Positions 52 through 26,494 of a stretch of DNA of 64,000 bases are shown here, piece after piece. A program made the position numbers and the translations under genes. The notes beneath the pieces were generated by a model. That model had not been told where the DNA came from and made no database searches. It saw only the letters and a list, made by a program, of their open reading frames with translations. Source of the stretch: Elusimicrobia bacterium HGW-Elusimicrobia-1 (GTDB lineage Bacteria; Elusimicrobiota; Endomicrobiia; PHAN01); contig PHAN01000016.1 in NCBI GenBank assembly GCA_002841695.1, positions 4,024 to 68,023 on the forward strand. Direction: 5' to 3'. Every line of letters starts with the position of its first letter. Position 1 is the first letter of the stretch.

Positions 52-1509
52 ATGGACAGAAACCTCGTTGAAAAAGTCACAAAACAAGTTATCGCCGACT
101 ACAGCCGCAAGTCCTCGTCGCCGCGAAAGATTATGGCGGTTTTTATGGGCGGAGACCGTAATCTCGACGATGCGCTGTCGGCCGTTCGCGAAATAGCCCG
201 CGCGGGCAACGAAACCAAAATCCTGATAACCCGCTCCGCCGCCTCCGTGATAGGCGTTGACAGAATCAAAAATACTACCGGCGTTTCCGACGTGATAATC
301 GACGACGGCAAACAGAATTCCGTGGCGCTTTCGTCGTGGCCGGATGCTCTGGTTATAGCCACCCTCACTCTGAACGGTCTTTCCAAAATAGCCAATCTCA
401 TAACCGACACGCTTCACTCCAATATCGTCGTAGGATGTCTTGAAAGACAAGTGCCGGTTATCGCCGCGCGCGACGCGGTTTTCTGCTCCTGCCATCCGGA
501 GCCGTCTTCCGCGAGCGGCCTGGCCAGAAAAGTCGAGTCGATGGTTTACGATCTCAAAAATATGGGCGTAACGGTGACCACCGCCAAAAATCTCGCCCGC
601 GATACGTCCTCGGCGACGGGCGCCCCAATCAAAAAAATTGAAGTTACCGTCGGAACGGCGGGAAAAGTGTTTTCGTACACGCCGCCCGCGGCCGTTGGCC
701 CGGCCGATAATTGTCCTGCTTTTAAGGATGGCGCGGACTGCGCTTCCTGCGGTAAGTGCATTGAGAAAAAACCCGGTTCCGTCGGCGCGGTAATATCGGC
801 CGGCGCCGACCGCGTAAGCGCCAGTGCGGGTACGCTTGCCCCCGGAAAACTCGCCAATTACATCGACCATACTCTCTTGAAAGCCAACGCCACTCAGGAA
901 GAAATCGGCAAACTCTGCGAAGAAGCCGCCAAATATAAGTTCGTTTCCGTTTGCGTGAACCCCGCCTACGTGGCGATGTCCGCGCAGCTTTTGCGCGGCT
1001 CCGGCGTTAAGGTGTGCACGGTAATAGGATTTCCTCTGGGAGCCACAACGCCCACGGTAAAAGCCATCGAGGCCAGAGACGCCATAGCCAACGGAGCCGA
1101 CGAGATAGATATGGTCATAAACGTCGGAGCCCTTAAAAGCGGAAACCATCAGTTGGTTCTTGAAGATATAAAAGCGGTGCGCGAAGCGACGCGCGGCAAA
1201 ATACTCAAAGTCATTCTTGAAACCGCGTATCTCACGCGCGAAGAAAAAATCAAGGCCTGCGAATTATCCAAAGCGGCCGCCGCGGATTTTGTTAAAACTT
1301 CCACCGGCTTCGGCCCGTCGGGCGCGACCGCCGAGGATATAAAACTTATGCGCGACACCGTCGGGCCGTCGATGGGCGTAAAGGCCTCGGGCGGTATTCG
1401 TTCCACCGCCGACGCGACGGCAATGGTCGCCGCGGGCGCCACGCGCATAGGCGCCTCCGCCAGCGTGGCCATAGTGATGGGCAAAGACGCCGGCGCGGGA
1501 AAATATTAA
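52..1509 (+). CDS. deoC: Fusion protein: N-terminal amphipathic helix plus linker, RpiB/LacAB-like Rossmann domain, Cys-rich linker, deoxyribose-phosphate aldolase (DeoC) domain
   Basis: C-terminal ~220 aa carry class I DeoC hallmarks ([47 protein letters not shown]). N-terminal ~150 aa ([43 protein letters not shown]) resemble the RpiB/LacAB (or flavoprotein-like) fold but are degenerate. The linker contains [16 protein letters not shown]. Residues 4-16 ([13 protein letters not shown]) followed by SRKSSSPRK look like a BMC encapsulation peptide. ATG 52 is preceded by GGAGAAATC. Confidence 0.8.
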
Positions 1510-1513: not shown

Positions 1514-1598
1514 AGTGGCGAGTGGCTAGTGATTAGTGGATAGTAAAGTCAAGAAGTTTTTCTAGCCACTAGCCACTAATCACTAGTCACTAACCACC
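1514..1598. repeat. Inverted element built from tandem heptads (AGTGGNN x4.5 on the left arm, CTARYCA x5 on the right arm) between deoC-fusion stop and BMC-H start
   Basis: Read directly: agtggcg agtggct agtgatt agtggat agt ... ctagcca ctagcca ctaatca ctagtca ctaacca. The arms are roughly reverse-complementary. Related copies occur at 17542-17587, 34186-34219 and 34326-34362. Confidence 0.7.
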
Positions 1599-1971: not shown

Positions 1972-2286
1972 ATGGATAAAAACGACATAGTCGACGTCGT
2001 GGCGGCCGTTCTTTCGTCCGCCCCCGCCCGCTCTTCCGGCGGCGAGCGGCCCGTTACGCCGTTTGGCGAGGCGGCCTCGCGGACGTATAAGTCCGGTGTT
2101 TACGCGTCAGGGTATCTGAAGCCGTTTACGGCGCTCAAAAGCGGTCGGCCTTTTCTGAGCGAGTACGACGTAAAGACAATGCTGAGTTCCAATCCGCGCG
2201 AAATAACGGTTCCCAAAAACGCCATTATCAGTCCGCTTGCCGAAGATCTTATACAGGAGAAAAACGTAAAAATCAATTATGTATGA
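1972..2286 (+). CDS. Hypothetical 104-aa protein with N-terminal encapsulation-peptide-like helix (DIVDVVAAVLSS) plus low-complexity linker; translationally coupled to pilT
   Basis: ORF with an amphipathic N-terminal helix followed by a Pro/Ser/Gly linker (APARSSGGERP). Its stop overlaps the pilT start (ATGTATGA at 2279-2286). No family recognised. Confidence 0.45.
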   Translation: MDKNDIVDVVAAVLSSAPARSSGGERPVTPFGEAASRTYKSGVYASGYLKPFTALKSGRPFLSEYDVKTMLSSNPREITVPKNAIISPLAEDLIQEKNVKINYV

Positions 2287-3355
2287 CGTAAAAAAACTTC
2301 TTGGCGCGATGATCCGCAACAACATATCGGACATCCATCTTAAATCTGATTCCGCGCCCTTAGTAAGAGTCAACGGAGAGCTTGTCACCGCGTCCGAGGA
2401 AAAGATAACGGCTGAAACGATGAAAACAATCGTTGAATCGGTGCTTTTGCCCGATCAGGCCGAGAAGTTTCGCAGGGATTGCGACATAGATTTTGCATAC
2501 TCCGTCGAAGGTCTTTCGCGGTTCCGCGTCAATATGAGCATGGAAAGGGGTAATCCGTCCATTGTTCTTCGAGTTATTCCGACGGAAGTAAAAACCTTTG
2601 AGGAACTCAACCTCCCCGACGAAGCATTCAGAAAACTCGCCAACGAATCCCGCGGGCTCATACTGATAGCGGGAATAACCGGCTCCGGAAAAACAACCAC
2701 TCTCAACGCCATTATCAATCACATCAACGAAAATACGCGCGCGAAGATCGTTACCATAGAAGATCCTATCGAGTATTATCATTTCGACAAAAAATCGTCG
2801 ATCTCGCAGCGCGAAATCGGCCGCGACGCCAAATCGTTTGAGAGCGCGCTGAAATATTCTCTCAGACAGGACCCCGATATCATAGTGCTGGGCGAACTCA
2901 GAGATTCCGAGTCGATGAAAGCCGCCATACTGGCCGCCGAGACCGGGCATCTGGTGCTTTCCACCATCCACACCATAGATACTTCTCAGACGATAGACCG
3001 CATCATCAGTTCTTACCCTCCGCATCTTCAGTCGGGCGTATGCGCCCAACTCGCCTATGTGGTCAAGGGGATAGTGGCACAGCGTCTGGTGCCTTCCAAA
3101 GATTGCTCCGCGCAATACCCCATTTGCGAGATACTTATAGGCACGTCGCTTATAAAAAATATCATCGCGGAGAAAAAGCTCGGCGATATAGCCAAGGCGC
3201 TTGAACAGGGCTCTTTTTACGGTATGCGCACGTTCGACCAGGATATATACAAGCTTTTTACCGAAGGTAAGATTTCGTCGGAAACCGCGTTTGAAAACGC
3301 CACTAACGTAGACGATCTGTCTTTGCGGCTAAAGGGTATAGAGCGAACCTCATAA
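2279..3355 (+). CDS. pilT: PilT-family type IV pilus retraction (twitching motility) ATPase
   Basis: Walker A GITGSGKTT, Asp box, Walker B DIIVLGELRD and His box TIHT are all present. Length 358 aa. N-terminus matches PilT-type (ISDIHLKSDSAPLVRVNGEL). Confidence 0.85.
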   Translation: MYDVKKLLGAMIRNNISDIHLKSDSAPLVRVNGELVTASEEKITAETMKTIVESVLLPDQAEKFRRDCDIDFAYSVEGLSRFRVNMSMERGNPSIVLRVIPTEVKTFEELNLPDEAFRKLANESRGLILIAGITGSGKTTTLNAIINHINENTRAKIVTIEDPIEYYHFDKKSSISQREIGRDAKSFESALKYSLRQDPDIIVLGELRDSESMKAAILAAETGHLVLSTIHTIDTSQTIDRIISSYPPHLQSGVCAQLAYVVKGIVAQRLVPSKDCSAQYPICEILIGTSLIKNIIAEKKLGDIAKALEQGSFYGMRTFDQDIYKLFTEGKISSETAFENATNVDDLSLRLKGIERTS

Positions 3356-3409
3356 AGGGACTTGCCTCCGCCCGCAGAGCCGACATCCGCAGTTGAAAGT
3401 CCGCGATCA

Positions 3410-5275
3410 ATGCTCAAAAAATGGGAATTTATCAGGCAGCCGGCGGAAAAAGATTCATCGCGCTGGCGTCTAAAACTCAAAATCGCCGAGGATGACGTCG
3501 ACAAAATCCTGGGCGAGCTGCCGGGCAATAAGGGAAGGCCGTTTCTGGTCGAGGACGGCGTCTTTGATTTCGGCGCGTATTTTTACAATCTCACGCAAAA
3601 CGACCACGCGGCCATAGCCGAAATACTCAAAAAGAAGTCGCCCGACGGCAAATGCGGCGGTTTTAACGAAGAAACCGAGGACGTTTTCGCTTCTCTGGCC
3701 GCCAAAATCGACGAATCCGCCCGCCTATCGCCGGTTTCTCAGGAATCCGCCAATCGTCCCGCGCCTCCTGCCGCGCCGCCATCCGGCCCACGCAACGGTC
3801 ATCACAACGGTAATAACGTCCCTGCTTCGCAGGCGGGCGCGGATGCTGCGGTCTCGCCGCAGGAAACTTATTCCGGCGCATTTCTCGTGGAGGATATGCC
3901 GCTTAATCCGGAGTATATTTTCGAGCAGTTTGTCGTGGGTTCCAATAATCGCTTTACCCACGCCGCCGCGCTCGCCGTGGCCAAGGCGCCCGGTAAAACT
4001 TACAATCCTTTCTTCATACACGGCGGCGTCGGCCTGGGTAAAACCCATTTGATGCAGTCCATCGGGCATTACGTCAAAAAAAACTTTCCGGATTTGAAGG
4101 TCCTCTATGTCACCACGGAGAAGTTCGTAGGCGACGTCATCGACGCCATAAGCCACGGCGAAAACAACGCTCTGAGGAACTTTTATAAAACCATCGACGT
4201 GCTTCTGGTCGACGATATACAGTCGCTGTCGCAATCCGAATCCATGCAGGACGAATTCTTTCATATTTTCAACCTGTTGCATCAGAATAAAAAACAGATA
4301 GTCATAACCTGCGACCGCCCGCCGAAACTTCTTAATATTCTGGAAGATCGGCTTCGCTCCCGTTTCGAGTGGGGGCTTATTGCCGATATGAAATCTCCCA
4401 CACTGGAAACAAGGGTCGCGATACTTAAGAAAAAAGAAGAAGCCGAGCATCTGGAACTCGACGATAATATACTGCTTTACATCGCTTCCAAGTTGAAATC
4501 CAATATAAGAGAACTCGAAGGTTTCCTGAAAAGAATAACCGCGTATTCCACGCTGACTAAGCAGGAAATCAATATTGCCCTGATAAAAACGCTTATGGCG
4601 GAACTTCTGCCCGGCGAGGAGAATCCGGATATTACCATGGCCGCCGAACAGGCAGCCAAGTCGCCTGTGCCGCAAATGCCGCCGCAGACAATTCCGAGTC
4701 AAAAAATACCCGAACACGATTCGCCCGAGCCGGAGCGTCCGTCTATGGATTCGCTTAGCGAGGCGGACATCAAAATAGTCCCCAAAGGCGTCCAATTTTC
4801 GCCCTCGCCGGCGCACACGATACCGCAGCCGGTTCATCAGCAGCCGTCCGTTCACGCCGCCGCGCACGCGTCATTGGATCCGACACTGCGTCCGGTTGAT
4901 GTGGTGTTCTTTTTTCCGTCGGGGAAAGAGAATGAACTGGCGAAAATAAAAGACAAGTTCGCCGAGGTCATCAAAAAACACAAACTCAAATTTCAACTCG
5001 TTTCCGTATTTGACAAACCATACGAAAATAAGGGCAAGATAAATTACGCCATGTTTACCGAACTCTGCAAGACAAACAAGGTCGGCATCTCCGTGGTGCT
5101 TGCGCCCCCGCCGGATGCGGGCATTCGGGAAGAGGATTTTGTCAATATTCTGGGAGCGATGATGAGCGATGAAAAAATATCTCTTCAACTGGTTCCGTGG
5201 AACGAGATAAACAAGGACTACCGCTATCTCAATCTGGCGTTGGATATAACACTTTCCGGCGCCGACGGCAAGTGA
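3410..5275 (+). CDS. DnaA-like AAA+ protein: DnaA domain III (including the RFEWGL signature) with non-DnaA N-terminal region and a ~230-aa C-terminal extension replacing DNA-binding domain IV
   Basis: NPFFIHGGVGLGKTHLMQSIG (Walker A), VLLVDDIQ (Walker B), RSRFEWGLIADMKSP (DnaA box VII) and ITCDRPP match DnaA domain III. No HTH domain IV sequence is present in any frame. The tail contains a Pro-rich linker and a distinct ~120-aa domain (VVFFFPSGKENELAKIKDKF...). An alternative TTG start exists at 3362. Confidence 0.7.
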   Translation: MLKKWEFIRQPAEKDSSRWRLKLKIAEDDVDKILGELPGNKGRPFLVEDGVFDFGAYFYNLTQNDHAAIAEILKKKSPDGKCGGFNEETEDVFASLAAKIDESARLSPVSQESANRPAPPAAPPSGPRNGHHNGNNVPASQAGADAAVSPQETYSGAFLVEDMPLNPEYIFEQFVVGSNNRFTHAAALAVAKAPGKTYNPFFIHGGVGLGKTHLMQSIGHYVKKNFPDLKVLYVTTEKFVGDVIDAISHGENNALRNFYKTIDVLLVDDIQSLSQSESMQDEFFHIFNLLHQNKKQIVITCDRPPKLLNILEDRLRSRFEWGLIADMKSPTLETRVAILKKKEEAEHLELDDNILLYIASKLKSNIRELEGFLKRITAYSTLTKQEINIALIKTLMAELLPGEENPDITMAAEQAAKSPVPQMPPQTIPSQKIPEHDSPEPERPSMDSLSEADIKIVPKGVQFSPSPAHTIPQPVHQQPSVHAAAHASLDPTLRPVDVVFFFPSGKENELAKIKDKFAEVIKKHKLKFQLVSVFDKPYENKGKINYAMFTELCKTNKVGISVVLAPPPDAGIREEDFVNILGAMMSDEKISLQLVPWNEINKDYRYLNLALDITLSGADGK

Positions 5276-5285: not shown

Positions 5286-6941
5286 ATGAAAAAAACGGGA
5301 TTTTTGCACTCTCTGATTCTTTTTGCTTTCGCCGTGCTGTGGGTCGGCGGCGGTTTGTGGATTACGGTCTGCGCTACGCGTTCCTATGCGGCCGCGCGCG
5401 CCGTATCGGCGGCGAAGTCGGCAGTTTCTTCAGGGACGTCGCGCGGCATATATGAGCATTTCGCATCGGAGAAGACACTGGTCAAGATCGGACGCGTATC
5501 CGCCAAAACGGGCGCGATAGAGAAGCCCGTGACAAAGACCTCGCGTATGCCGGTGGAGTTTTTCTCCGCGGAGTTCGAGGCAGGGGGGGAATATTACAGA
5601 ATGTGGTATGCGGCGGCGTTTTATCTGGATTCGCTCAAGCATAAGATGACGCCGGTGGCAATCGGTTGGGTAGTGTGGCTGTTCGCGGGACTTTTTGCGG
5701 CGCACTGGCTCAACAGAAAACTTTTATTCGATCCATTGGATGCCCTCTCGTCGATCGAATCCTCGCCCGCCAGAATTCCCAAGGCCATCGAGGCCGCCGC
5801 AAGGGCGGTTTTCGACGCGCGATCCCATCTGGCGCTTCATTCGGTGCACTCTTCCGTGTTGCTGCAGGCCGCCAAATCCATATCTTCGCACGTGGACCTC
5901 AATCACGCCGTCTCGCGCATACTCGACATAGTTGTGGAGAAATTCCCCGACACTTCCTGCTCCGTGACGTTTCTCGACGATGACGGTTTCATAAGAATAA
6001 AAAACACCCGCGGGCTTTCCGCCGAGTTTATCAAAAAAATCAAGCTTCGCCGGGGAGAGGGTTTTGCGGGGGAATGCGTTGAAACCAAAAAAACCATAGT
6101 GGTACAGGATACCGATAAGACGTCGAATGCGGCCACCGATAAATTTGTCGCCGGTGAAAACATCAAATCGTTCGTCCACGTTCCCATAGTCGTCGAAAAT
6201 CGCGCCATCGGGACATTCAATATCAACTCGTACAAGAAGGACTATTTTACCCGCGACATTCTCAGCGTGGCCGCCACGCTCAGCGAATATCTGTCCGTGG
6301 CCGTTTCCAACGCCAAACTCTACGAACGTCTGCGAGATTTCAACCGGCGTCTGGAATCGGAAGTGTCCTACACCACCAGCGAATTGCTCAAGACCAACGC
6401 GAAACTGGTGCGTAAAATCAGAACGATGAAGAGCGCCATGGAAATCTTCGGCTATTTTGAATCCGAATCCCCGTCGACCGAAATATTGACGAAAGTATTT
6501 ACCAAAATCCGCGACGTTGTCGGCGCCGATTTTATAGCGTTTGTCACTTGCGACGCGGCTTGCGGACGGTTTAGGCCGCTTTTCAGGGTATCGGGTCTCG
6601 GCGATAACGAAACCGCTTTCGGCCGGACGGAATATGCGCCCGCCGAAGTCCCGCCCGCCGCCGAAGCTTTGGCGTCCGGCCGGCCCGTCATCAAAAATTC
6701 CCCGACGTCCGACGCTAAATGGAAGATAGTTCCGGAAGGCGTATTCATCAAAACGTCGGCGGTTTTTCCCGTTTTTGCCGGAGGAACCGCCGCGGGAGCC
6801 ATAATACTGGCAAATAAAATCGGCGAAGGTTTCGACGACGCCGACGCGGAATTCGCAGTTATGGCGGCTTCCCGTCTGGGCGTTTATATACACTGCGAGT
6901 ACCACTGTCACAAAAAAACGCCCGTTGCGGCGAAAAAATAA
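5286..6941 (+). CDS. Membrane-anchored tandem GAF-domain protein (no recognisable output domain)
   Basis: N-terminal TM helices (LILFAFAVLWVGGGLWITV, VVWLFAGLFAAHWL). The first GAF domain matches typical GAF sequence (...GEGFAGECVETKKTIVVQDTDK...IGTFNINS) and is followed by a second GAF-like region. Confidence 0.6.
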   Translation: MKKTGFLHSLILFAFAVLWVGGGLWITVCATRSYAAARAVSAAKSAVSSGTSRGIYEHFASEKTLVKIGRVSAKTGAIEKPVTKTSRMPVEFFSAEFEAGGEYYRMWYAAAFYLDSLKHKMTPVAIGWVVWLFAGLFAAHWLNRKLLFDPLDALSSIESSPARIPKAIEAAARAVFDARSHLALHSVHSSVLLQAAKSISSHVDLNHAVSRILDIVVEKFPDTSCSVTFLDDDGFIRIKNTRGLSAEFIKKIKLRRGEGFAGECVETKKTIVVQDTDKTSNAATDKFVAGENIKSFVHVPIVVENRAIGTFNINSYKKDYFTRDILSVAATLSEYLSVAVSNAKLYERLRDFNRRLESEVSYTTSELLKTNAKLVRKIRTMKSAMEIFGYFESESPSTEILTKVFTKIRDVVGADFIAFVTCDAACGRFRPLFRVSGLGDNETAFGRTEYAPAEVPPAAEALASGRPVIKNSPTSDAKWKIVPEGVFIKTSAVFPVFAGGTAAGAIILANKIGEGFDDADAEFAVMAASRLGVYIHCEYHCHKKTPVAAKK

Positions 6942-8400: not shown

Positions 8401-10701
8401 ATGAGTCAGAAAGAAATCGTGAGCGCATCGGCGCTGGCGGCAAAAACATCGTATCCATCCTCGGAAATCGCATCGGCCGAACGGCTATTCGCGGCATATC
8501 GTTCGATAGTCGTAATGCTGTTCAACTTCGTGCAATCGGGCCATCCGGGCGGGTCGATATCGATGGGAAGGCCGCTGCTTAACATTACCCTCAATAAAAA
8601 CACCAAACTCGATATAACGGACCTCGACCGCCCCGACTCCGACATTATAGGTATGGCCGCCGGTCATAAGGCGCTGGGGCTGTATTCATATCTGGGGCTG
8701 CTCTTTGAGATAGTCAAAATAAAAGACCCCAAACTTTTTGAGTCGATAAAACGCAAAATGCGGTTCGAGGACCTTCTGGGCTTCCGCAAAAATCCCGCCA
8801 CCGAACTTCCTCTGATGAAGAAATTCTCTTCCAAGCGGCTCGACGGACATCCCACTCCCGAAACACCGGGCGTAGTGGTGGCTACGGGAGCGTCGGGCGT
8901 GGGTTTCGGCGCCCTGGGCGGATATGCTTTTGCCAAAAAAGAGTATTACGACGCGCCTCCGACGATAAACATTATCGAGGGAGAGGGGGGAATGACTCCC
9001 GGCCGCGTGCACGAGAATCTCGCGCATTTCTGGGCGCTGGACCTTTGGAATCTTATAATTCACGTCGACTGGAACAACGCATCCATCGACGCCGACAATG
9101 TGTGCGCCACGGACAAGTGCCGCGGACAATATGTCAACTGGTCGCCTCACACGCTGGGAGCATTGCACGGCCTCAACGTAGTTTACGTCGAAGACGGACG
9201 CGACCCTTCAAAAGTCCGCGCCGCGCAGGATCACGTATTCGGCGAATTTATGAGCCGGAAAGAATCGCCCAATATGATAGTGTACCGCACGGTGAAGGGC
9301 GAGGGATACTGGGAAGGAAGAAAGTCCCACGGCGCCGGATTCAAGACGGACGCGCCGGAGTATTTCGCCGCGCAGAAAACTTTCGAGGACGCTTTCAACG
9401 TAAAAATGATACCCGCCCCCGAAAAACTGACTCTTGAAACAAGAGAAGAGTATCTTTATAAAAATCTGCTCGTCGTCGAACAGGCGTTGAAATCCGACAC
9501 GAAACTCGTCGACTATGTATTCAACGCGCTGATGTCGTCCCGCGACGCCCTCAATAAAGCCGGCCGCAGGCCCGCGGCAAAAAGCGCCGATATATCGACG
9601 GTTAAGGCGCCGTCCGGCAAGTTCTCGGAAACGAATCCTCCCGCCGAAATCATCCATAAACCCGGTTCCGCGGTTACACTCAGGGAATCGCTCGGCAATA
9701 CGCTTCATTACTTCAACGCTTACACGGGCGGCGGTCTTTACGGCTTCGCGGCCGACCTCGTGGGTTCCACAAGCTTAAATCTTATGTGCGAGGACTTTCA
9801 GAAAAAGGGATTCCTCACCTGCGAAAATCCCTACGCCAAAATAATTCCCACGGGAATTTGCGAAGACGGCGGCTCGTCGCTGATATCGGGCATTTCGGCC
9901 ACCGGACATTATGTGGGAGTGGGAAGTTCGTACGCCACTTTCATGAGCCCCATGGGATTTACGGCCGCGCGGCTTTTTGCCATCGCCTACCAGGCGAAGC
10001 ACGGCGCCGATATGGCTCCGATGATACTGATTAACGCTCACGCGGGTCTTAAAACCGGAGAGGACGGACCGACTCACGCCTGTCCGCAGACCCTTTCTCT
10101 GTGGAAGGGATTTGATAAATTAAACGTGAAAGTTGTCACGCTTACTCCCTGGGATCCCAACGAAATCTGGCCGCTTATGATAGCGGCTCTCAAACTTCGT
10201 CCCGCCGTCATAATTCCTTACGTGACGCGGCCGGCCGAGACGGTTGTCGACAGGGAAAAAATAGGACTTCCTCCCGCCGCCGTCGCCGCCGCCGACGGCA
10301 TATACCGCGCGCGCACCGCTAAAAAATCTTCGAAAACGGTGATATATCAGGGCGCCGAAGTCGGCACGGAACTGCCGGGAGTGCTTGAAGCGCTGGACAA
10401 GGATGATGTTGACGTCAACATTCTCTACGTCGCGAGTTCCGAACTTTTCTCCAATCTTTCCGCCGATAAACGGGAAAAAATACTGCCGGTCGAGTTCAAG
10501 AAAAACGCTATGGCCGTCACCGGTTTTACGATTGATACAATGTACGAATACCTGCTTTCAGAAGAGGGCAGGGCAGCGTCGCTGCATCCTTTCAAGAAAG
10601 GCGTTTTCCTTGGTTCGGGACCGGGTTCGGAAGTGCTCAAACAGGCCGGACTCGACGCCGCTGCGCAAGTCAAAGCCATAAAAGAATTCGTCGGTAAGTG
10701 A
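8401..10701 (+). CDS. Divergent transketolase-family thiamine-diphosphate enzyme (766 aa)
   Basis: Collinear with transketolase: SGHPGGSIS (TK GHPG motif), GEGGMTPGRVHENLAHFWALDLWNLIIHVDWNNASID (TK GDGxxMEG...DNxISID). Carries extra insertions and a longer C-terminus than canonical Tkt. Confidence 0.6.
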   Translation: MSQKEIVSASALAAKTSYPSSEIASAERLFAAYRSIVVMLFNFVQSGHPGGSISMGRPLLNITLNKNTKLDITDLDRPDSDIIGMAAGHKALGLYSYLGLLFEIVKIKDPKLFESIKRKMRFEDLLGFRKNPATELPLMKKFSSKRLDGHPTPETPGVVVATGASGVGFGALGGYAFAKKEYYDAPPTINIIEGEGGMTPGRVHENLAHFWALDLWNLIIHVDWNNASIDADNVCATDKCRGQYVNWSPHTLGALHGLNVVYVEDGRDPSKVRAAQDHVFGEFMSRKESPNMIVYRTVKGEGYWEGRKSHGAGFKTDAPEYFAAQKTFEDAFNVKMIPAPEKLTLETREEYLYKNLLVVEQALKSDTKLVDYVFNALMSSRDALNKAGRRPAAKSADISTVKAPSGKFSETNPPAEIIHKPGSAVTLRESLGNTLHYFNAYTGGGLYGFAADLVGSTSLNLMCEDFQKKGFLTCENPYAKIIPTGICEDGGSSLISGISATGHYVGVGSSYATFMSPMGFTAARLFAIAYQAKHGADMAPMILINAHAGLKTGEDGPTHACPQTLSLWKGFDKLNVKVVTLTPWDPNEIWPLMIAALKLRPAVIIPYVTRPAETVVDREKIGLPPAAVAAADGIYRARTAKKSSKTVIYQGAEVGTELPGVLEALDKDDVDVNILYVASSELFSNLSADKREKILPVEFKKNAMAVTGFTIDTMYEYLLSEEGRAASLHPFKKGVFLGSGPGSEVLKQAGLDAAAQVKAIKEFVGK

Positions 10702-10800
10702 CTATGTCATTCTGAGGAGTCACCTTGCGGGTGACGACGAAGAATCTTGTCTTAATAGATTCTTCGCTTCTCTCAGAATGACGTGATTCGGACAATAATT
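10702..10800. repeat. Nested-palindrome intergenic repeat (MITE/REP-like), related to the copy at 27676-27900
   Basis: gtcattctgagg...ctcagaatgac (11-nt IR), gtcacc/ggtgac and gaagaatct/agattcttc sub-palindromes. A 27-nt block agattcttcgcNNCNctcagaatgacg is shared with 27805-27831. Confidence 0.6.
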
Positions 10801-12510
10801 ATGCAGATAAGCGAACTGATTCGCGCGGCATCCGGAAGCGTCAAGCCGGATTTATGCCTGAAAAACGGCCGGGTCGTCAACGTGCTTTCGGGCGAAATCG
10901 AACGCGCCGATATTCTGGTGCACAAGGGCTATATAGCGGCCGTCGGCGCGCATTTGCCCCGCGCCCGACATTCCATAGATATGGGCGGATCGTTTGTCGC
11001 GCCCGGTTTTATCGACGGTCACGTGCATATAGAGTCGTCGATGATGTCCGTATCCGAGTTCGCCCGCGCCGTGTCGTCGCGCGGTGTGACATCGGTAATC
11101 ACCGACGCCCACGAAATCGCCAACGTTCTTGGCATCGACGGAATAAAGTATATGCTTGAATCGGCAAAATATCAGCCGCTTAATGTATTTTTTATGCTTC
11201 CGTCGTGCGTTCCCGCCACCAAAATGGAAACGGCGGGCGCGCGTTTGTCCGGCTTCGACCTTTATCCGTTTCTTAAAGAAAAGTGGGTGGTCGGCCTGGG
11301 CGAAGTAATGAATTTTCCCGGCGTCATAATGGCCGACGAGGATTTGCTCGACAAAATGAAGATTGCCGCCGGCAAAAGAATCGACGGGCATTCTCCCGGA
11401 CTTTCCGGAGCGGGTCTGGCCGCCTATATAGCATCCGGCATAACGTCGGACCACGAATCCACCACCCTTGCGGAGGCGCGCGAAAAACTTCGCAGAGGAA
11501 TGTACGTAATGGTTCGCGAAGGCACTTCCGAGAAGAATCTCGCATCCCTGATACCTCTTGTCAACGAAAAAAATTACTCGCGCTTTTTCTTTGTTTCCGA
11601 CGACAGACATCCGCACGACCTGGTGAAAGAGGGTTCCATAGATCATCTTGTAAGAAAAGCCGTGTCTCTGGGTCTGGCCCCCCTGACGGCCATAAGAATG
11701 GCCACGATAAACACTGCGGAATACTTCCGTCTTCCGCGCATCGGCGCGCTGGCTCCGGGTTATCAGGCCGACATCGCCGTGTTCGACAGTATGCGCGCAA
11801 TTCGTCCGCGAATGGTTATGCGGCGCGGCGCGGTAGTCGCCAAAGACGGGAAGTTCGTTGCGCGCAAAGTCCGCATCGCGGCCCGTCTCAGAGGTTCGGT
11901 AAATGTGCGATGGCTCGACGCAAAAGATTTCGCGGTGCGCGCCGAGGGAAAGCGCATTAAAGTAATCGAGGTCGTTCCCCATCAAATAGTAACCCGCAAA
12001 AAAATAATGCGCGCAAAGGTCGAAAAAGGCCTGGCCGTTTCCGATACGGCGAACGACGCGCTTAAAATGGTCGTGGTGGAACGGCATCAGGCGTCGGGCG
12101 CAATCGGCAAAGGATTTGTGAAGGGCTTCGGTCTTAAAAGGGGCGCGATAGCCCAGTCCGTCGCGCACGACTCGCATAATATCATAGCGGTCGGCGCCGA
12201 CGACCGGTCCATTTATTCGGCCTGCGTCGACATAGTAAAAATGGGCGGCGGTTTAAGCGTTGCCGACGGCGACAACATTCTTGCGCGTATGCCTCTGCCG
12301 ATAGCCGGACTTATGACCGACGAGCCGCTTGAGTCGGTAGTGACGTCTCTGGAAGAACTGCTTGCCGCGGCGCGAAAACTCGGCTGCGGATTGCCCGATC
12401 CGTTTATGACGCTGTCTTTTATGGCGCTGCCGGTAATACCGGAACTGAAACTGACGGATAAAGGTCTTGTCGACGTAAATAAAATGAAAATTACGGAGCT
12501 TTTCGAATGA
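10801..12510 (+). CDS. ade: Adenine deaminase
   Basis: GFIDGHVHIESSMM metal-binding motif and overall collinearity with Ade (~570 aa). GTG 10783 is an alternative start. Confidence 0.85.
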   Translation: MQISELIRAASGSVKPDLCLKNGRVVNVLSGEIERADILVHKGYIAAVGAHLPRARHSIDMGGSFVAPGFIDGHVHIESSMMSVSEFARAVSSRGVTSVITDAHEIANVLGIDGIKYMLESAKYQPLNVFFMLPSCVPATKMETAGARLSGFDLYPFLKEKWVVGLGEVMNFPGVIMADEDLLDKMKIAAGKRIDGHSPGLSGAGLAAYIASGITSDHESTTLAEAREKLRRGMYVMVREGTSEKNLASLIPLVNEKNYSRFFFVSDDRHPHDLVKEGSIDHLVRKAVSLGLAPLTAIRMATINTAEYFRLPRIGALAPGYQADIAVFDSMRAIRPRMVMRRGAVVAKDGKFVARKVRIAARLRGSVNVRWLDAKDFAVRAEGKRIKVIEVVPHQIVTRKKIMRAKVEKGLAVSDTANDALKMVVVERHQASGAIGKGFVKGFGLKRGAIAQSVAHDSHNIIAVGADDRSIYSACVDIVKMGGGLSVADGDNILARMPLPIAGLMTDEPLESVVTSLEELLAAARKLGCGLPDPFMTLSFMALPVIPELKLTDKGLVDVNKMKITELFE

Positions 12511-13715
12511 CGCGCAAACTCGTCGCGCTTGTCATACTCGATTCATTCGGCGCGGGAGCCCTTCCCGACGCCGCTGAATACGGCGATGCGGGCGCCGACA
12601 CGCTCGGTCACATCGCCGGACAAACCAAGAATTTTAATCTGCCCAATCTGGCGCGGCTGGGACTTTATGAATTGATAGCTCCTTCGGCCCGGCCGGCTTT
12701 TCCGCCCGGAAAAATCACCGGCTGCTACGGCAAAATGGCCGAGGCCTCGGACGGTAAAGACACGCCCATAGGCCACTGGGAGATAACGGGACTTATCACC
12801 GAAAAACCGCTGCCCACTTATCCCGACGGCTTTCCCAAAGAATTAATCGAGCGCTATGAAAAAATCATAGGCGTCAAAACCCTCGGCAATTACGCCGCCT
12901 CCGGCACGGAGATTTTAAAACAACTCGGCGACGAGCATTACAAAACCGGATATCCGATAGTATACACTTCGGCCGACAGCGTTTTTCAGGTGGCCGCGCA
13001 CGAGGATCCCAAAATTTTCGGGCTCAAAAAACTTTACGAAATATGCGAAGCCGTCAGAAAAATGCTGGCGCCTCCGCATAACGTGGGCCGCGTTATCGCG
13101 CGGCCGTTTATCGGCGAGCCGGGGGCGTTTGCGCGCACGTCGAACCGTCACGATTACGCCCTCGACCCCGCCGGCGAGACGCTTCTTGACAAACTCCGGA
13201 AAGCCGGCGTGAGAGTGTCGGCCGTCGGAAAAATATACGACATATTCAACGGTAAAGGCATCGACGAAACCGTTCGCACGCGCGACAACCGCGACGGAAT
13301 GGCGCGAACGCTTGAAGCCGTCCGCAAAGCCGTCGACGGGCCGTCGGGAACCAAAACTTTCGTGTTCACGAATCTGGTCGATTTCGATATGCTCTGGGGA
13401 CATCGCAGAAATGTCGCGGCTTATTACGAGGGGCTTAAGGAGTTCGACGATTTTCTGCCGCGGCTGGAAGATGCTCTCGGCGATGAAGGCGTTCTTCTGA
13501 TAGCGGCCGACCACGGCTGCGACCCCGCCTACGCCGCTCATACCGACCACACCCGCGAACACGTGCCCGTGCTTGTCTCGGGACAAGGCGTTAAGAAAGG
13601 AATAAATCTGGGCGTCCGCAAAACCTTCGCCGACGCCGGGCAGACAATATCCGAATTGTTCGGGGCGGAGCGAACCGCCGCGGGAGTTTCATTCGCCAAG
13701 GAAATAGTTCTTTGA
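12507..13715 (+). CDS. deoB: Phosphopentomutase
   Basis: N-terminus VILDSFGAG, followed by GHWEITG and AADHGCDP motifs typical of DeoB. Its start overlaps the ade stop. Confidence 0.9.
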   Translation: MTRKLVALVILDSFGAGALPDAAEYGDAGADTLGHIAGQTKNFNLPNLARLGLYELIAPSARPAFPPGKITGCYGKMAEASDGKDTPIGHWEITGLITEKPLPTYPDGFPKELIERYEKIIGVKTLGNYAASGTEILKQLGDEHYKTGYPIVYTSADSVFQVAAHEDPKIFGLKKLYEICEAVRKMLAPPHNVGRVIARPFIGEPGAFARTSNRHDYALDPAGETLLDKLRKAGVRVSAVGKIYDIFNGKGIDETVRTRDNRDGMARTLEAVRKAVDGPSGTKTFVFTNLVDFDMLWGHRRNVAAYYEGLKEFDDFLPRLEDALGDEGVLLIAADHGCDPAYAAHTDHTREHVPVLVSGQGVKKGINLGVRKTFADAGQTISELFGAERTAAGVSFAKEIVL

Positions 13716-14746
13716 GCGCTTCCTTGTTACTTATCGTTTTGATAGTTGTTGTCGCGTTGGCGTTCGATTTTACCAATGGATTCAACGACTCCGCCAATAT
13801 TGTGGCGGCCGCCATAATGTCCCGCGCCATAGGACCGTCGACGGCGTTGTTGTTGGCGGCAGTTTCGGAATTCGTGGGAGCGTATTTTTTGGGAACGGCG
13901 GTCGCTTCAACGGTAGGGAAAGGCATCATAGACCCCGCGGGATTTACCGCTTCGGGCGGCGCCGCCGGCGGACTTGCGATTCTTTCGGCGCTGTTCGGCG
14001 CCATAGCGTGGAACGTAACTTCGTTGAGAATGGGAGTGCCGTCGTCGTCTTCGCACGCGCTCATAGGCGGACTTATCGGAGCATTCATAGCACTGGCCGG
14101 ATTTCACAGCGTTTACTGGAACAAGGTCGCGCAGGTAATCTCTATAATGATAATATCGCCTGTCATCGGAATTGCCTCGACTTTTATATTCGCGAAACTC
14201 ACGTTGCTGTTTGCATCGTGGAGTTCTCCGCGCATAAACAAGATATTCCGCAAGTTTCAGATCGTCGCTCTCGTGACACAGGCGCTTGCGCATGGCACCA
14301 ACGACGCGCAGAAGACAATGGGAGTGATAACTTTTGCTTTGATAGCGATGGGCTTTCTTGCCGCGCCCGATGCCGCCGCCGCGCTGGTCGTGCCCAAATG
14401 GGTAACAGCCGCCTGCGCCGCGGCGATAGCGCTTGGAATGGGTTCGGGCGGACGCAAGATAATAAAAACTCTCGGCGGAAAACTTTATAAAATCCGGCCC
14501 GTTCACGGCTTCGCTTCTCAGACGGCTTCGTCATTGATAATCGCGGCGACATCGTTTTTCGGATATCCCATTTCGACGTCGCAGGTCATTTCGTCTTCGG
14601 TGATGGGCGCCGGCGCGGCATTCCGCCCCAAAATGGTCCGGTGGCAGGTCGCAAAGGATATGGGTATGGCGTGGCTCGTAACCATACCGGTGAGCGCCCT
14701 TGTCTCGGCTTTGATTTTTTCGGTCGTCAAAAAGATTTTACTTTAA
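13712..14746 (+). CDS. Inorganic phosphate transporter, PiT family
   Basis: Polytopic membrane protein with PiT signatures (FDFTNGFNDSAN and a second HGTNDAQK repeat). Confidence 0.85.
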   Translation: MSASLLLIVLIVVVALAFDFTNGFNDSANIVAAAIMSRAIGPSTALLLAAVSEFVGAYFLGTAVASTVGKGIIDPAGFTASGGAAGGLAILSALFGAIAWNVTSLRMGVPSSSSHALIGGLIGAFIALAGFHSVYWNKVAQVISIMIISPVIGIASTFIFAKLTLLFASWSSPRINKIFRKFQIVALVTQALAHGTNDAQKTMGVITFALIAMGFLAAPDAAAALVVPKWVTAACAAAIALGMGSGGRKIIKTLGGKLYKIRPVHGFASQTASSLIIAATSFFGYPISTSQVISSSVMGAGAAFRPKMVRWQVAKDMGMAWLVTIPVSALVSALIFSVVKKILL

Positions 14747-14776
14747 CAAAAACCTCGCGGCATAAGGAAGGTTAAC

Positions 14777-15379
14777 ATGTGGCCTTTTAAAAAACGTCCC
14801 GATTTTTTCGATATGCTCGCGGCGCAATCGGCAAAAGTCGAGGAAGGACTGCAGACGCTTGTCGAGTTTATGGATGAACCGTCCAAAGAAAAAGCAAAAA
14901 AAATTAACGATCTTGAGGAAGAGGCGGACGAACTCCGCAGAGTGTTAATCGACGAATTGAACCGCACTTTCGTCACGCCGATAGACCGCGAGGATATATT
15001 CGCCCTGTCGCGCGACATCGACGATTTGATAGATTACGCTAAATCCACCGTCGAGGAAATGACTCTTTTTGAAGTCAAACCGGATATATCCATAAAAAGC
15101 ATGGTCGAAGCTCTTTCCGGCGCGGCGCGCGAGATAAACTTTGCGATGAAAAATCTCAAAGAACGTCCCGGCGTGGCCGAGGAACACATAGTAAGAGCCA
15201 AAAAAATAGAGAATTATGTAGAACATCGTTACAGGGAAGGTTTAGCCGAATTATTTAAGACAAACGACACCATAAATATAATGAAAACACGCGAGATTTA
15301 CCGCCACCTTTCCAACGCGGCCGACCGCGTATCGGACGCCGCCGACGTTATGGGCGATATTCTCGTTAAAACCGCATAA
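14777..15379 (+). CDS. DUF47/PhoU-like phosphate-transport accessory protein (PiT partner)
   Basis: Typical DUF47 N-terminus (FFDMLAAQSAKVEEGLQTLVEFM...EEEADELRR). Conserved pairing immediately downstream of a PiT gene. Confidence 0.75.
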   Translation: MWPFKKRPDFFDMLAAQSAKVEEGLQTLVEFMDEPSKEKAKKINDLEEEADELRRVLIDELNRTFVTPIDREDIFALSRDIDDLIDYAKSTVEEMTLFEVKPDISIKSMVEALSGAAREINFAMKNLKERPGVAEEHIVRAKKIENYVEHRYREGLAELFKTNDTINIMKTREIYRHLSNAADRVSDAADVMGDILVKTA

Positions 15380-15395
15380 AGGGAGACGTAGTAAG

Positions 15396-16214
15396 ATGAC
15401 TATAATTGAAAAACTCAAAGAATCCGAAAATTTTCTTGAGACCAAAACATCCATACGGCCCGAGATAGCGCTGGTTCTGGGCTCAGGTCTCGGCGGCGTG
15501 GTGGATATTATCGGGAACAAAACCGTGATACCTTACAAAGATATACCGCATTTTCCCGTGTCCACCGTTTGCGGACACGCCGGACAGCTCGTATTCGGAA
15601 CGCTCGAAGGCAAGTCGGTCGTGGCTATGCAGGGCCGCGTGCATTTTTACGAAGGGCATCCGATGAGCGTAGTCACCTATCCGATACGCCTGATGAAAAA
15701 ACTCGGCTGTTCCAAATTGATACTGACCTCCGCGGTGGGAGGTATAAACGAGAGCTATGCGCCCGGCGACGCCGTGGTCATAACCGACCATATAAACTTT
15801 ATGGGCACGAATCCTCTTATAGGCGGGCATTGCGACGATTTCGGACAGAGATTCCCGGATATGAGCCGCGTATACTCGTCGCGCCTGGCGGGCATTGCGA
15901 TTGATACCGCCCAAAAAATGAACATCCGCGCCCACGTCGGCGTTTATTTCGCGTCGACCGGCCCGTCATACGAGACACCTTCGGAAGTCAGGGCTTTTGC
16001 CAAACTCGGCGGCGACGTCGTGGGAATGTCGGTTGTGCCGGAAGCCATAGTGGCCAACCAGTCGGGCATTGAACTTCTGTGCCTTTCTTATGTGTCGAAT
16101 ATGGCCAGCGGAATTTCCAAAAAAGGACTCTCTCACGAAGAAGTCATGGAAGTCGGACGTGAGGCCGGCGGCCGCCTGTCTAAACTTATTGCCGCGGTCG
16201 TTAAGTCGGCTTAA
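15396..16214 (+). CDS. Purine nucleoside phosphorylase (trimeric PNP-I family, PunA/DeoD-type II)
   Basis: ALVLGSGLGG phosphate-binding motif, HFYEGH, and VGMSVVPEA. Confidence 0.85.
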   Translation: MTIIEKLKESENFLETKTSIRPEIALVLGSGLGGVVDIIGNKTVIPYKDIPHFPVSTVCGHAGQLVFGTLEGKSVVAMQGRVHFYEGHPMSVVTYPIRLMKKLGCSKLILTSAVGGINESYAPGDAVVITDHINFMGTNPLIGGHCDDFGQRFPDMSRVYSSRLAGIAIDTAQKMNIRAHVGVYFASTGPSYETPSEVRAFAKLGGDVVGMSVVPEAIVANQSGIELLCLSYVSNMASGISKKGLSHEEVMEVGREAGGRLSKLIAAVVKSA

Positions 16215-16229
16215 ACGCGGGAGATATAT

Positions 16230-17540
16230 ATGAGAATATACGACATAATCTATAAGAAGAGAAATAATCTGGAACTTTCCGCCGACGAAATTAAATATAT
16301 CGTCGAGGCGTATACCAAAGGCGACGTCCCCGACTACCAGATGGCGGCCTTTCTTATGGCCGTTTTTATACGGGGGATGGCCGACGCCGAACTGGCCGAA
16401 CTCACGGCCGCTATGACCGAATCCGGCGAGATAATGGATTTGTCCGACATAAAATCGCCCAAAATCGACAAACACTCCACGGGCGGCGTGGGCGACGGCA
16501 TATCGCTGGCGCTGGCGCCCCTTGCGGCCAGTTTCGGCGTGGTCGTGCCTATGATGTCCGGCAGAGGACTGGGGCATACCGGCGGCACTCTGGACAAACT
16601 CGAATCGATACCCGGTTTCAGGGTGGATCTTTCCGCGGGCGATTTCAAAAAGCAACTCGATAAAATAGGCGTCGCGATAATAGGTCAGACGGAAAAAGTC
16701 GCCCCGGCCGACAAAAAAATCTACGCTCTGCGCGATGTCACCGCCACGGTCGACTCCATACCTCTTATAGCCGCTTCCATAATGTCCAAGAAACTCGCCG
16801 AAGGCGCCGATGGTCTTCTGCTCGACGTAAAAACCGGCTCCGGCGCGTTTATGAAAACGCTCGAAGATTCAAAAAAACTAGCCGGAGTTATGGTAGCCAT
16901 AGGCCGCAAGTCCGGTAAAACTATGCGTGCCGTGATTACCGATATGAGCCAACCGCTGGGGAATGCGGTCGGTAATTCGCTTGAAATCGAACAGACGGTT
17001 TCCGTGCTCAAAGGCCGCGGCCCCGAAGATTTCAGCTCGCTTGTCGTAGAACTCGCCGCGCGGATGATAGTGATGGCCGGCGTTTTTGACAAAATTGAAG
17101 ACGCCCGTTCCGCCGCCGCAAAAAATCTTTCGTCGGGCGCCGCGCTTGCAAAATTCGCCGCTATGGTCGAAGCTCAGGGCGGCGACCCCGAAGTGGCCGC
17201 GTCTCCGGATAAAATTCTGCCTCGCTCCAAATTCGCGGAGGACATAAAAATTCCGGGCGGCGGTTATATATCGGAAATTAAGACCGACGACGTCGGCATA
17301 TGTTCTTTGGAACTGGGCGCCGGCCGCGCCAGTAAGGAAGATAAGATAGATTACTCCGCCGGAATAGTCCTGCATAAAAAGGTCGGCGACAAGATATCGT
17401 CCGACGAGGCCGTCGCGACATTTTCGTATAACAAAGCGCGTTCGCCCATTTCGGAAATAAAGAAAAAGTTCGCCGAATGTTTCAAGGTGTCTCAAACGCC
17501 GCCGCAAAAGCCGCGGATGATTCACGACGAGATAAAGTAA
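16230..17540 (+). CDS. pdp: Pyrimidine-nucleoside (thymidine) phosphorylase
   Basis: KHSTGGVGD, a Gly-rich loop and overall Pdp/DeoA collinearity (436 aa). Confidence 0.9.
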   Translation: MRIYDIIYKKRNNLELSADEIKYIVEAYTKGDVPDYQMAAFLMAVFIRGMADAELAELTAAMTESGEIMDLSDIKSPKIDKHSTGGVGDGISLALAPLAASFGVVVPMMSGRGLGHTGGTLDKLESIPGFRVDLSAGDFKKQLDKIGVAIIGQTEKVAPADKKIYALRDVTATVDSIPLIAASIMSKKLAEGADGLLLDVKTGSGAFMKTLEDSKKLAGVMVAIGRKSGKTMRAVITDMSQPLGNAVGNSLEIEQTVSVLKGRGPEDFSSLVVELAARMIVMAGVFDKIEDARSAAAKNLSSGAALAKFAAMVEAQGGDPEVAASPDKILPRSKFAEDIKIPGGGYISEIKTDDVGICSLELGAGRASKEDKIDYSAGIVLHKKVGDKISSDEAVATFSYNKARSPISEIKKKFAECFKVSQTPPQKPRMIHDEIK

Positions 17541-17541
17541 A

Positions 17542-17587
17542 AGTGAATAGTGGTTAGTCTTTTACTATTCACTAACCACTAACCACT
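17542..17587. repeat. Heptad-repeat hairpin element (CACTAAC x2.5 with inverted partner) immediately 5' of recJ
   Basis: agtgaatagtggttagtc tttt actattcactaaccactaaccact. Same module family as 1514-1598. Confidence 0.65.
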
Positions 17588-17603
17588 TGTCCTACACACT
17601 ACA

Positions 17604-19826: not shown

Positions 19827-19859
19827 GCGTCCGGAGAACTACATAAGGAGACACAATCA

Positions 19860-21113: not shown

Positions 21114-21252
21114 AAAATTGAGTCAATTGAAAAATACTCCTTTTTCCCGTATGTCATTTCCGAATGTTGTTATCGGGAATCCATACTGCGGAGGAAACCT
21201 TGAATTTCCGCTTTAGCGGGAATGACGTGACAAGGGTTTTTCAACGGTCTCA
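21114..21252. repeat. Dispersed intergenic repeat (MITE-like), sharing both terminal blocks with 27676-27900
   Basis: 5' block caattgaaaaaRtaYcc (21124-21140 vs 27681-27697). 3' block gaatgacNNNacaaNNNgggtttttcaacggYctca (21218-21252 vs 27844-27879). Confidence 0.65.
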
Positions 21253-21336
21253 AATTAAGAAGTCGGTGAATTTAGCGATGGAAAGCGCCGGACGCCGACA
21301 GCGTCCCGGTGTTTTTCTGATATTTGCGGAGGCAAT

Positions 21337-23174: not shown

Positions 23175-23233
23175 AAGCCGATCGCCCGGTAAATATCGCC
23201 GCCGCGCATATCGCGGCGCAATGGAGAAAAGTT

Positions 23234-24217: not shown

Positions 24218-24282
24218 TGTTTTTGTTTCCGGCGCTTTTTCTTTGGACAAGTAAAAAGAGCGAATAACCAGGAGGATTACGA

Positions 24283-24939: not shown

Positions 24940-24951
24940 AAGAGGCGTACA

Positions 24952-25983: not shown

Positions 25984-26003
25984 AACGGAGGTTTCAAAAG
26001 TTT

Positions 26004-26399
26004 ATGGATAAAAAATATCAGGAATTGCTCGAAGCCGCAAAAGCCGCCCGCAAAAACTCTTACAGCCCCTATTCAAAGTTTCCCGTGGGAGCGGCTCTCT
26101 TGACGGAAGACGGAAAAATCTTTACCGGCTGCAATGTCGAAAACGCCTCCTACGGTTTGACTAATTGCGCCGAGCGCACCGCGATATTCAAAGCCATTTC
26201 CGAGGGCTCCAAAAAATTCAAGGCCATAGCCATAGTGCTCGACGCTCCCGATTACGGAGCGCCCTGCGGCGCGTGCCGTCAGGTTATATACGAGTTCGGT
26301 CCCAATATCGACGTCATAATGGGCACGGTGTCGGGTAAGTCCGAGGTAAAAAAAATCTCGGAACTTATACCTCTGGCATTCGGACCGGAGAATCTTTGA
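26004..26399 (+). CDS. cdd: Cytidine deaminase
   Basis: CAERTAI and PCGACRQV zinc-binding motifs. Length 131 aa. Confidence 0.92.
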   Translation: MDKKYQELLEAAKAARKNSYSPYSKFPVGAALLTEDGKIFTGCNVENASYGLTNCAERTAIFKAISEGSKKFKAIAIVLDAPDYGAPCGACRQVIYEFGPNIDVIMGTVSGKSEVKKISELIPLAFGPENL

Positions 26400-26494
26400 T
26401 AGAAAAACAGGAGTGTAGCGGCGGGATTGCTATCCCGCAATAATATGCCGCATAGCAATGCGGCCGCTATCATCTCCGCTAAAAAGGAGAAATA

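Follow-up and report, generated by a model that had tools for sequence, protein, structure and literature searches.

Inverted heptad arrays at three gene junctions of an Elusimicrobiota genome: a version of the G-rich heptameric intergenic repeats of bacteria

Three gene junctions in the window, the 64-kb stretch of DNA that was analysed as a whole, carry short arrays of 7-nt units, each followed by an array of the complementary sequence. The question raised by this locus is what such paired arrays are and why they are found where they are. A sequence-only reading had described them as heptad-repeat inverted elements placed in front of three start codons and had offered three explanations: RNA structures that sequester the ribosome-binding site, a binding array for a protein, or a small mobile element.

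Arrays of AGTGRNN units followed by complementary NNYCACT arrays occur at exactly three sites within the 64-kb window. The core motif AGTGGNNAGTG is matched 10 times in the window against an expectation of 0.08, and none of the shuffled sequences reached 10. A looser three-unit pattern has 16 matches against 0.17 expected, and all 16 are inside the three elements. Tandem Repeats Finder (TRF) reports a period of 7 at the same three sites. Each arm contains 3-5 units with the core AGTG(G/A), and the arms of the inverted repeats are 23-34 nt long and 83-88% complementary. Element lengths range from 46 to 180 nt, with 85, 52 and 180 nt for elements 1, 2 and 3. The existence of three non-random, hairpin-forming inverted sites is thereby confirmed, and their reported AT-richness holds as well (GC 0.35-0.44 in the elements and 0.54 in the window). 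The unit had been written AGTGGNN; the 7-nt repeat is real, but its fifth base is either G or A, hence AGTGRNN. The view that these are not helical-repeat operators is supported. The density of three elements in the 64-kb window can be set beside 19 arrays in 176 kb of related genomes. The DNA is from an Elusimicrobiota MAG; the flavoprotein-DeoC fusion protein encoded in the window shares 100% identity with one from 'Elusimicrobia bacterium HGW-Elusimicrobia-1', and the closest relatives of the organism carry the label Endomicrobiia.

Element 1 lies on the forward strand, as do the other two, at the junction of a flavoprotein-DeoC fusion gene and a BMC-H shell gene (52-1895). The fusion gene is the ORF 52-1509, for which locus L132 has a database gene call and Pfam families, and it ends with the stop codon TAA at 1507-1509 (+). 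After a gap of 4 nt the G-rich arm, AGTGGCG AGTGGCT AGTGATT AGTGGAT AGTAAAG, extends over 1514-1548 (+), as seen in the sequence, the pattern scans and the inverted-repeat analysis. It is followed by a loop region at 1549-1557 (+), placed by the predicted fold, and by the C-rich arm (TTTTCT) AGCCACT AGCCACT AATCACT AGTCACT AACCACC at 1558-1598 (+), found in the sequence, by TRF and as an inverted repeat. The start region of BMC-H (1601-1616, +) comes 2 nt after the end of the element. Its Shine-Dalgarno (SD) sequence GGAGG at 1601-1605 is separated by 8 nt from the ATG at 1614, and in the sequence both are outside the stem. The product read from this ATG has 93 aa and matches the record.

Element 2 is situated between the genes for thymidine phosphorylase and RecJ. 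Its G-rich arm, AGTAAA AGTGAAT AGTGGTT AGT (17536-17558, +; pattern scan and inverted repeat), and its C-rich arm, ACTATTC ACTAACC ACTAACC ACT (17564-17587, +; sequence, TRF and inverted repeat), begin at the upstream gene itself: the stop codon TAA of thymidine phosphorylase, 17538-17540, is within the first, degenerate unit, and the gap is 0. The element ends 16 nt before the recJ ATG at 17604, where no SD is visible.

Element 3 connects the gene of a PLD-like T9SS protein with a PorV-like gene. The G-rich arm, AGTGAT GGTGATT AGTGGCG AGTGGTT AGTGATT AGTAAAT (34181-34221, +; pattern scan and inverted repeat), again has the upstream stop codon, TGA 34183-34185, within its first, degenerate unit (gap 0), and it ends 14 nt before the PorV-like ATG at 34236. 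The 'loop' of about 100 nt (34222-34322, +; sequence and fold) contains this ATG and the N-region of the signal peptide. The C-rich arm, TTT ACTATCC ACTATCC ACTCGCC ACTAACC ACTTACT (34323-34360, +), is inside the PorV-like coding sequence and encodes FTIHYPLATNHLL, residues 30-42 of the signal peptide. The earlier description was correct in placing one arm of this pair in the signal-peptide codons.

The genes around the elements have features of their own. A run of nucleoside and pentose catabolism genes occupies about 8500-27700 of the window and encodes transketolase, adenine deaminase, phosphopentomutase, two purine nucleoside phosphorylases, thymidine phosphorylase, a PfkB kinase, adenosine deaminase and cytidine deaminase. 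Together with DeoC and BMC-H, these genes look like the setting of a sugar-phosphate- or deoxyribose-utilising microcompartment. The recJ gene (17604-19826) codes for a DHH/DHHA1/RecJ_OB fusion with an internal RNase_T-type exonuclease domain, and the RecJ and RNase_T fusion architecture is common to many Elusimicrobiota homologues. At 2279-5275 the gene of a PilT-like T2SSE ATPase precedes that of a DnaA-family AAA protein, an order conserved in relatives; the AAA protein has long low-complexity, proline-rich N-terminal and central regions.

All three elements begin in intergenic DNA, which makes up 5.7% of the window, and one arm reaches into the signal-peptide coding sequence. Each takes up its spacer except for the last 15 nt or so in front of the next start. 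Because 56 of the 57 gene junctions in the window are co-directional, a start-proximal position between co-directional genes is expected here for anything intergenic. The emphasis that had been put on the position 5' of start codons is consequently not borne out; the relation to the upstream stop codon is the stronger rule.

The predicted RNA folds are stable. Element 1 gives a hairpin of -44.1 kcal/mol (z -6.8; z -7.2 for the DNA fold), element 2 one of -19.5 kcal/mol (z -3.0; DNA fold z -5.6), and element 3 a long-range hairpin of -79.7 kcal/mol (z -6.1). Structure prediction, which had been suggested as a check on regulatory leaders, thus returned the stable hairpins (z -3 to -7) without the pairing that sequestration requires: in the predicted folds of all three elements the SD sequences and start codons are outside the heptad stems. 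An Rfam search with gathering and E-value thresholds found no family at the elements, giving only two tRNAs elsewhere and one chance miRNA match. Scans for sigma-70 promoters and intrinsic terminators found nothing in the elements, nor was a U-tract or an alternative structure found at them. Sense and antisense hairpin energies do not differ (7 versus 8, p = 0.84). The proposal of attenuators that sequester the ribosome-binding site, and with it any leader or riboswitch of this kind, is not supported, given the unpaired start regions, the absence of an Rfam match, of a U-tract and of an alternative structure, and the occurrence of orthologous junctions without the element: the recJ element is missing in a relative with 98% identical RecJ and the BMC-H element in most relatives. 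The three elements are not conserved, gene-specific switches, and in annotation such elements should not be taken for conserved riboswitch-like leaders.

Intrinsic terminators, defined by a GC-rich hairpin with a U-tract, are excluded by the same scans. A related idea is that the elements are 'I-shaped', factor-independent terminators lacking the U-tract, or bidirectional insulators between transcription units. The hairpins are stable and directly follow stop codons, and a G-rich 5' arm with a C-rich 3' arm resembles the stems of terminators. In Xanthomonas, transcripts start or stop more often at heptad repeats capable of forming G-quadruplexes (G4) than at control repeats (PMC4692102). Against this, none of the three elements has a U-tract, and the start codon of element 3 is inside the hairpin. 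Moreover, BMC-H, recJ and PorV keep only about 15 nt before their starts, where no promoter fits or was found, and termination at the elements would therefore silence these three genes. Termination is highly improbable as the role of the elements.

The same junctions in relatives show how the elements change. At the thymidine phosphorylase-recJ junction element 2 is identical in three samples of the species, and it is absent in relatives whose RecJ is 98%, 85%, 70% and 60% identical. In the nearest of these (SRR4188643, L128:9874-10000) an unrelated spacer of 127 nt is found in the place of element 2; this spacer has two small GC-rich hairpins and a purine-rich stretch with a period of about 7 nt (GAGATTA TGAGATT GAGAGATTAGG). 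This seems to be a junction at which spacers are replaced especially often. No strain polymorphism was found at elements 1 and 2, all contigs of the same species being identical. At the DeoC fusion-BMC-H junction four relatives have a short spacer with a plain SD and no heptads, and the related MAG GCA_041694835.1 has an inverted heptad hairpin of another family, with GAGGACA-type against CTCTC-type units. In the locus L214:1770-1870 (JGI 3300002733) a run of N directly follows the SD at this junction, within the BMC-H gene start, and may be an assembly break.

At the junction of the PLD-like and PorV genes, the most distant relative has a 17-nt spacer without heptads, and in GCA_041694835.1 about ten GCTATTC units are located inside the signal-peptide codons. 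A long-range hairpin around the PorV start codon is present in three species, each with its own unit: the arms are AGTGG/CCACT in the window, AGTGA/TCACT in L004 and AGTAAAT/ATTTAC in L125, and pairing is kept in each. Between species, arm identity at this junction is 0.47-0.73 against 0.78-0.89 for the flanking coding sequence. The arms therefore evolve faster than their surroundings and yet change jointly. When arms were exchanged between species, only those of the window were clearly self-matched; the arms of L004 and L125 are cross-compatible. Generally, the number and sequence of units vary among close relatives, and at the same junctions the elements turn over much faster than the flanking genes. 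The PorV-like gene of L125 (GCA_030018875.1) also contains, at 3690-3790, a GC-rich palindromic element of about 95 nt, bounded by the terminal inverted repeats GTCATTGCGAGGAGC...GCTCGCAATGAC. This in-frame insertion falls in the signal-peptide region, downstream of the start codon and upstream of the C-rich heptad arm, and enlarges the loop of the long-range hairpin to about 250 nt.

GCA_041694835.1 is rich in heptads, and arrays are present at about a quarter of its junctions. Its families are GCTATTC, ACTCTCA, GAGGTCA/GAGAACA, CTCTCAC and GTGGCTC/AGCCACC, with sites at L126:59-128 and 984-1156, at L131:4011-4822, 6529-6614, 14600-14684 and 17752-17876, and at L215:3870-3989 and 8465-8533. 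In PorV and in a Lactamase_B protein, the hydrophobic part of the signal peptide is encoded by such arrays. Two dispersed composite families have a constant part. One is represented by three copies of ...CGCTTTCCGCTTT..CATTTTATTCTCTCACCTCTCACC, and the other by two copies, in opposite orientations, of the hairpin (GTGGCTC)n-GTTTCCTCC-(AGCCACC)n. Heptad elements can thus extend into signal-peptide codons and reshape the N-termini of proteins.

Composite families of this kind bear on the third of the original proposals, a small mobile element, which at the three junctions would be a non-autonomous, MITE-like or REP-like insertion mobilised in trans by a transposase. Arrays in GCA_041694835.1 do belong to dispersed elements with a constant segment in 2-3 copies, presence and absence vary among close relatives, the termini are inverted repeats, and the palindrome in the signal-peptide region of L125 is a true MITE. 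The copies in the window are of a different kind. They have no common constant core or loop, their arms are variable-number tandem units, their lengths of 85, 52 and 180 nt differ, and no target-site duplication is visible at any of them. A MITE has a constant internal sequence and shared termini; only the heptad is common to these three, and no direct repeat flanks them. With tandem heptad arms and no GTAG-type head they are not REP or BIME sequences either, and the database Pfam gene calls for the covered parts of the window include no transposase. The orthologous PorV element, finally, evolved in place. The small mobile element was accordingly not upheld for the window, and a transposed origin is quite unlikely.

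The placement of heptads was examined further by scanning one genome per species for four AGTGG-type units, which yielded at least 120 loci in at least 15 phyla; the loci listed are mainly from Acidobacteriota, Planctomycetota, Chloroflexota, Cyanobacteria, Verrucomicrobiota and Bacteroidota. Gene positions were taken from a self-trained codon-usage gene caller, which matched the database gene calls on L004. Certain genomes are characterised by heptad arrays: the sampled genomes contain 281 of them in 839 kb, and unrelated control loci 2 in 781 kb. The order of the arms is nearly invariant. Among the loci listed, the AGTG array comes first in 22 of 22 inverted pairs, and in pairs of other heptad families the G-rich arm comes first in 20 cases against 4; the window agrees in all three elements. 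Apparent AGTG-type exceptions to this order are neighbouring tandem copies of a triplicated hairpin. In Plectonema radiosum NIES-515 (L043:6390-6714) a 126-bp heptad hairpin unit, composed of an AGGGAGT-type G-arm, an 8-nt loop and a C-arm, is tandemly triplicated. The inverted order could have arisen from two leaders of divergent genes, but this is rejected, as the inverted pairs among the loci listed are mostly between co-directional genes.

A strong positional rule holds across genomes: the G-rich arm begins at the upstream stop codon. Among the loci listed, arrays of G-rich sense are at a median of 4.5 nt from the upstream stop, 37 of 54 being within 15 nt, and arrays of C-rich sense are at a median of 100 nt, with 6 of 44 within 15 nt (p = 1e-7). 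Arrays of C-rich sense have only a weak tendency to lie near start codons; in the same loci 13 of 35 are within 30 nt of one, compared with 7 of 45 among arrays of G-rich sense. Single, unpaired arrays among the loci listed follow the stop-codon rule as well. Stop codons carried in the frames of the units themselves cannot explain the rule, because the GGGAATC family, which has no stop in any frame, also obeys it. Polar growth of the arrays is without support, since no gradient of unit decay runs along them: unit identity to the consensus is alike at both ends (5.86 and 5.91 of 7), and the flanks of the arrays have no residual periodicity. A shuffling test for mirror order of unit variants between the arms had no power, the arrays being too uniform.

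The diversity of units is also relevant to the second proposal, a binding array. Its partner could be a protein that recognises a 7-nt register in RNA or single-stranded DNA, in the manner of HutP, or the ribosome, by base pairing. HutP binds UAG-N4-UAG-N4-UAG, and in HutP and TRAP sites NAG triplets recur at a fixed spacing within the 5' arm of a terminator. The G-arms of the window read (U/G)AG-N4 repeated 3-5 times, so that, like these sites, they present (U/G)AG with a spacing of 7 nt on the 5' side of a hairpin. The period is strictly 7 nt with a conserved core of 4-5 nt, and the units GUGAUC and GUGGUC are complementary to GAUCAC in the 3' sequence of 16S rRNA. Unlike HutP and TRAP sites, the elements have no U-tract terminator, and the heptads of other genomes do not conserve NAG. 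Binders of the S1, Csp or CsrA type have been suggested for another heptamer repeat, TAACTGA (MacGregor 2015, PMC4679880). A single shared binder is nevertheless unlikely, because the heptads of other genomes contain CAG, GAG or AAG, or have another sequence altogether, and follow the same rules of placement; units also drift rapidly between sister species. A binding array is, on balance, improbable, to about the same degree as transposition.

The explanation best fitting these results, which we hold to be about evenly balanced between right and wrong, is that the elements are self-expanding repeat DNA and that the intercistronic hairpin is a by-product. Slipped-strand mispairing in steps of 7 nt would create and alter the arrays at the level of DNA, and the likeness of the two arms would be kept by intrastrand template switching or gene conversion. 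Slippage is inferred as the origin; all contigs of the same species carry identical copies, and no slippage was seen directly. Repeat DNA of this sort would turn over much faster than the flanking genes and would extend from the stop codon until some 15 nt short of the following start, with a permissive segment of one signal peptide in addition, as is observed; it would persist only where it is harmless. Since the arrays are inside operons they are expected to be transcribed, and from either strand the transcript is predicted to fold into a long hairpin between two cistrons. Such a hairpin would lie in the path of the ribosome terminating on the upstream gene, and may have a modest effect on the stability of the 3' end of the upstream cistron and on the access of ribosomes to the downstream cistron.

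The alternative closest to the evidence is that the hairpin itself is selected: starting in the footprint of the terminating ribosome, it would couple or insulate translation, stabilise the mRNA or be processed by RNase III, and so set the expression ratio of the two cistrons. The layout of stop codon, at most 10 nt, hairpin, at most 20 nt and start codon is found in all three elements of the window and, among the loci listed, in roughly half the co-directional pairs of other phyla. The predicted stems are very stable, the Xanthomonas repeats of this class are transcribed (PMC4692102), and the PorV hairpin was retained in three species despite change of both arms. This persistence with co-varying arms would also be the product expected of selection for pairing. 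A hairpin made from other heptads is found at the DeoC-BMC-H junction of a second lineage, but it is not significant because about a quarter of the junctions of that heptad-rich genome carry arrays. A DNA-level process is favoured over a selected RNA switch since the recJ element is missing where RecJ is 98% identical, the SD sequence and start codon are unpaired in the stems, sense stems are no more stable than antisense stems, and single arrays, which lack a partner, follow the stop-codon rule too. For the Xanthomonas and Nostoc repeats, Rehm et al. saw no connection with regulation (PMC4692102). Selection of the hairpin is a possibility to be taken seriously, though we consider it rather unlikely.

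Self-expanding repeat DNA, the preferred explanation, does not by itself account for everything. The strict G-arm-first order and the contact with the stop codon are unexplained by a neutral DNA process, and selection at the RNA level could be responsible for them; the retention of the PorV hairpin in three species is likewise unaccounted for by such a process. In a more far-reaching reading, inverted heptad arrays of fixed polarity, with the G-rich arm beginning at the upstream stop codon and the C-rich arm ending at the next start, might form a general, unrecognised intercistronic class, present in at least 15 phyla, built from any heptad, kept by selection for pairing and acting on the terminating ribosome or the transcript. 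The proposal is speculative and has only a small probability of being right. If it were true, the possible actions would be translation coupling, shielding of a C-rich stretch on which Rho is loaded, and protection of 3' ends, and the quadruplex idea put forward for Xanthomonas and Nostoc would be a special case of a broader rule.

Several described systems resemble the elements in part. The REP and BIME sequences of Enterobacteria and Pseudomonas are intergenic, imperfect palindromes located just past stop codons in operons; they are transcribed and can stabilise the upstream mRNA. A REP is one palindrome of 20-40 nt that carries a conserved GTAG-type head and owes its mobility to a RAYT transposase. 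The elements share with them the intergenic, stop-adjoining position of inverted structures within operons, but their arms are tandem heptads lacking such a head. Like the cyanobacterial STRR and the long simple sequence repeats (SSRs) of 5-11 nt (Mazel 1990, Mrazek 2007), they consist of 7-nt units over-represented in the non-coding DNA of particular genomes; the definition of those repeats, however, covers tandem arrays generally and includes neither the architecture of inverted pairs nor rules of placement. A general excess of heptanucleotide repeats, and the idea of polymerase slippage, are attributed to Mrazek 2007 in the accounts of PMC4692102 and PMC4679880.

The TAACTGA direct repeats of marine Beggiatoaceae, Cyanobacteria and Bacteroidetes (MacGregor 2015, PMC4679880) are found just upstream of start codons, have strain-specific indels in steps of 7 nt and are missing in close relatives; a post-transcriptional role was proposed for them but not shown (PMC4679880). 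The window arrays are similar in being intergenic heptamer arrays near starts that are absent from close relatives. The TAACTGA repeats, in contrast, comprise 169 direct sets and 1 inverted set and overlap the expected ribosome-binding site in forward orientation (PMC4679880), whereas the window arrays are inverted pairs whose firmest rule concerns the upstream stop codon.

The closest match is to the repeats described by Rehm et al. (2015, PLoS One; PMC4692102), GGGAATC in Xanthomonas and GGGGA(C/T)T in Nostoc. These are 89-93% intergenic, mostly between co-directional ORFs; the neighbouring ORF on the 5' side is 28 nt away, much nearer than the downstream ORF at 160 nt. They occupy the coding strand and either overlap the stop codon or come within 50 bp of it, form 70-75 convergent inverted pairs per genome, are mostly transcribed and differ between sister species; no function was found for them, and G-quadruplexes were proposed (PMC4692102). 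The elements of the window agree in being tandem 7-nt units with a conserved core and variable positions, in their intergenic position between co-directional ORFs with the G-rich coding strand adjoining or overlapping the stop codon, and in their convergent inverted pairs able to form stem-loops. As in that class, the number and sequence of units differ between sister species and there is no link to gene function. Genomes with repeats of that class typically have tens to hundreds of copies, to be set against three elements in the 64 kb analysed here. They differ in the unit AGTGRNN, in the phylum, Elusimicrobiota, and in having one arm inside a coding sequence. The quadruplex-forming subset has four or more G-tracts of at least three G; AGTGRNN has runs of GG at most, and the quadruplex explanation for this reason does not apply here. 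From the agreement with the rules of Rehm et al. it follows that the window elements belong to the described class.

Among the long simple repeats of bacteria, heptameric ones are the commonest. Rules known from quadruplex-capable heptads, namely a G-rich strand at the stop codon, convergent pairs and fast turnover, also apply to heptads that cannot form quadruplexes, both in this genome of a candidate phylum and in many phyla. The rules are therefore argued to follow from the process that generates 7-nt repeats or from hairpin formation, and not from quadruplexes. The three elements represent in Elusimicrobiota the STRR-like, G-rich heptameric intergenic repeats of Xanthomonas, Nostoc and other bacteria, and what they add to that class is a unit incapable of forming a quadruplex, a new phylum and an arm within a coding sequence.
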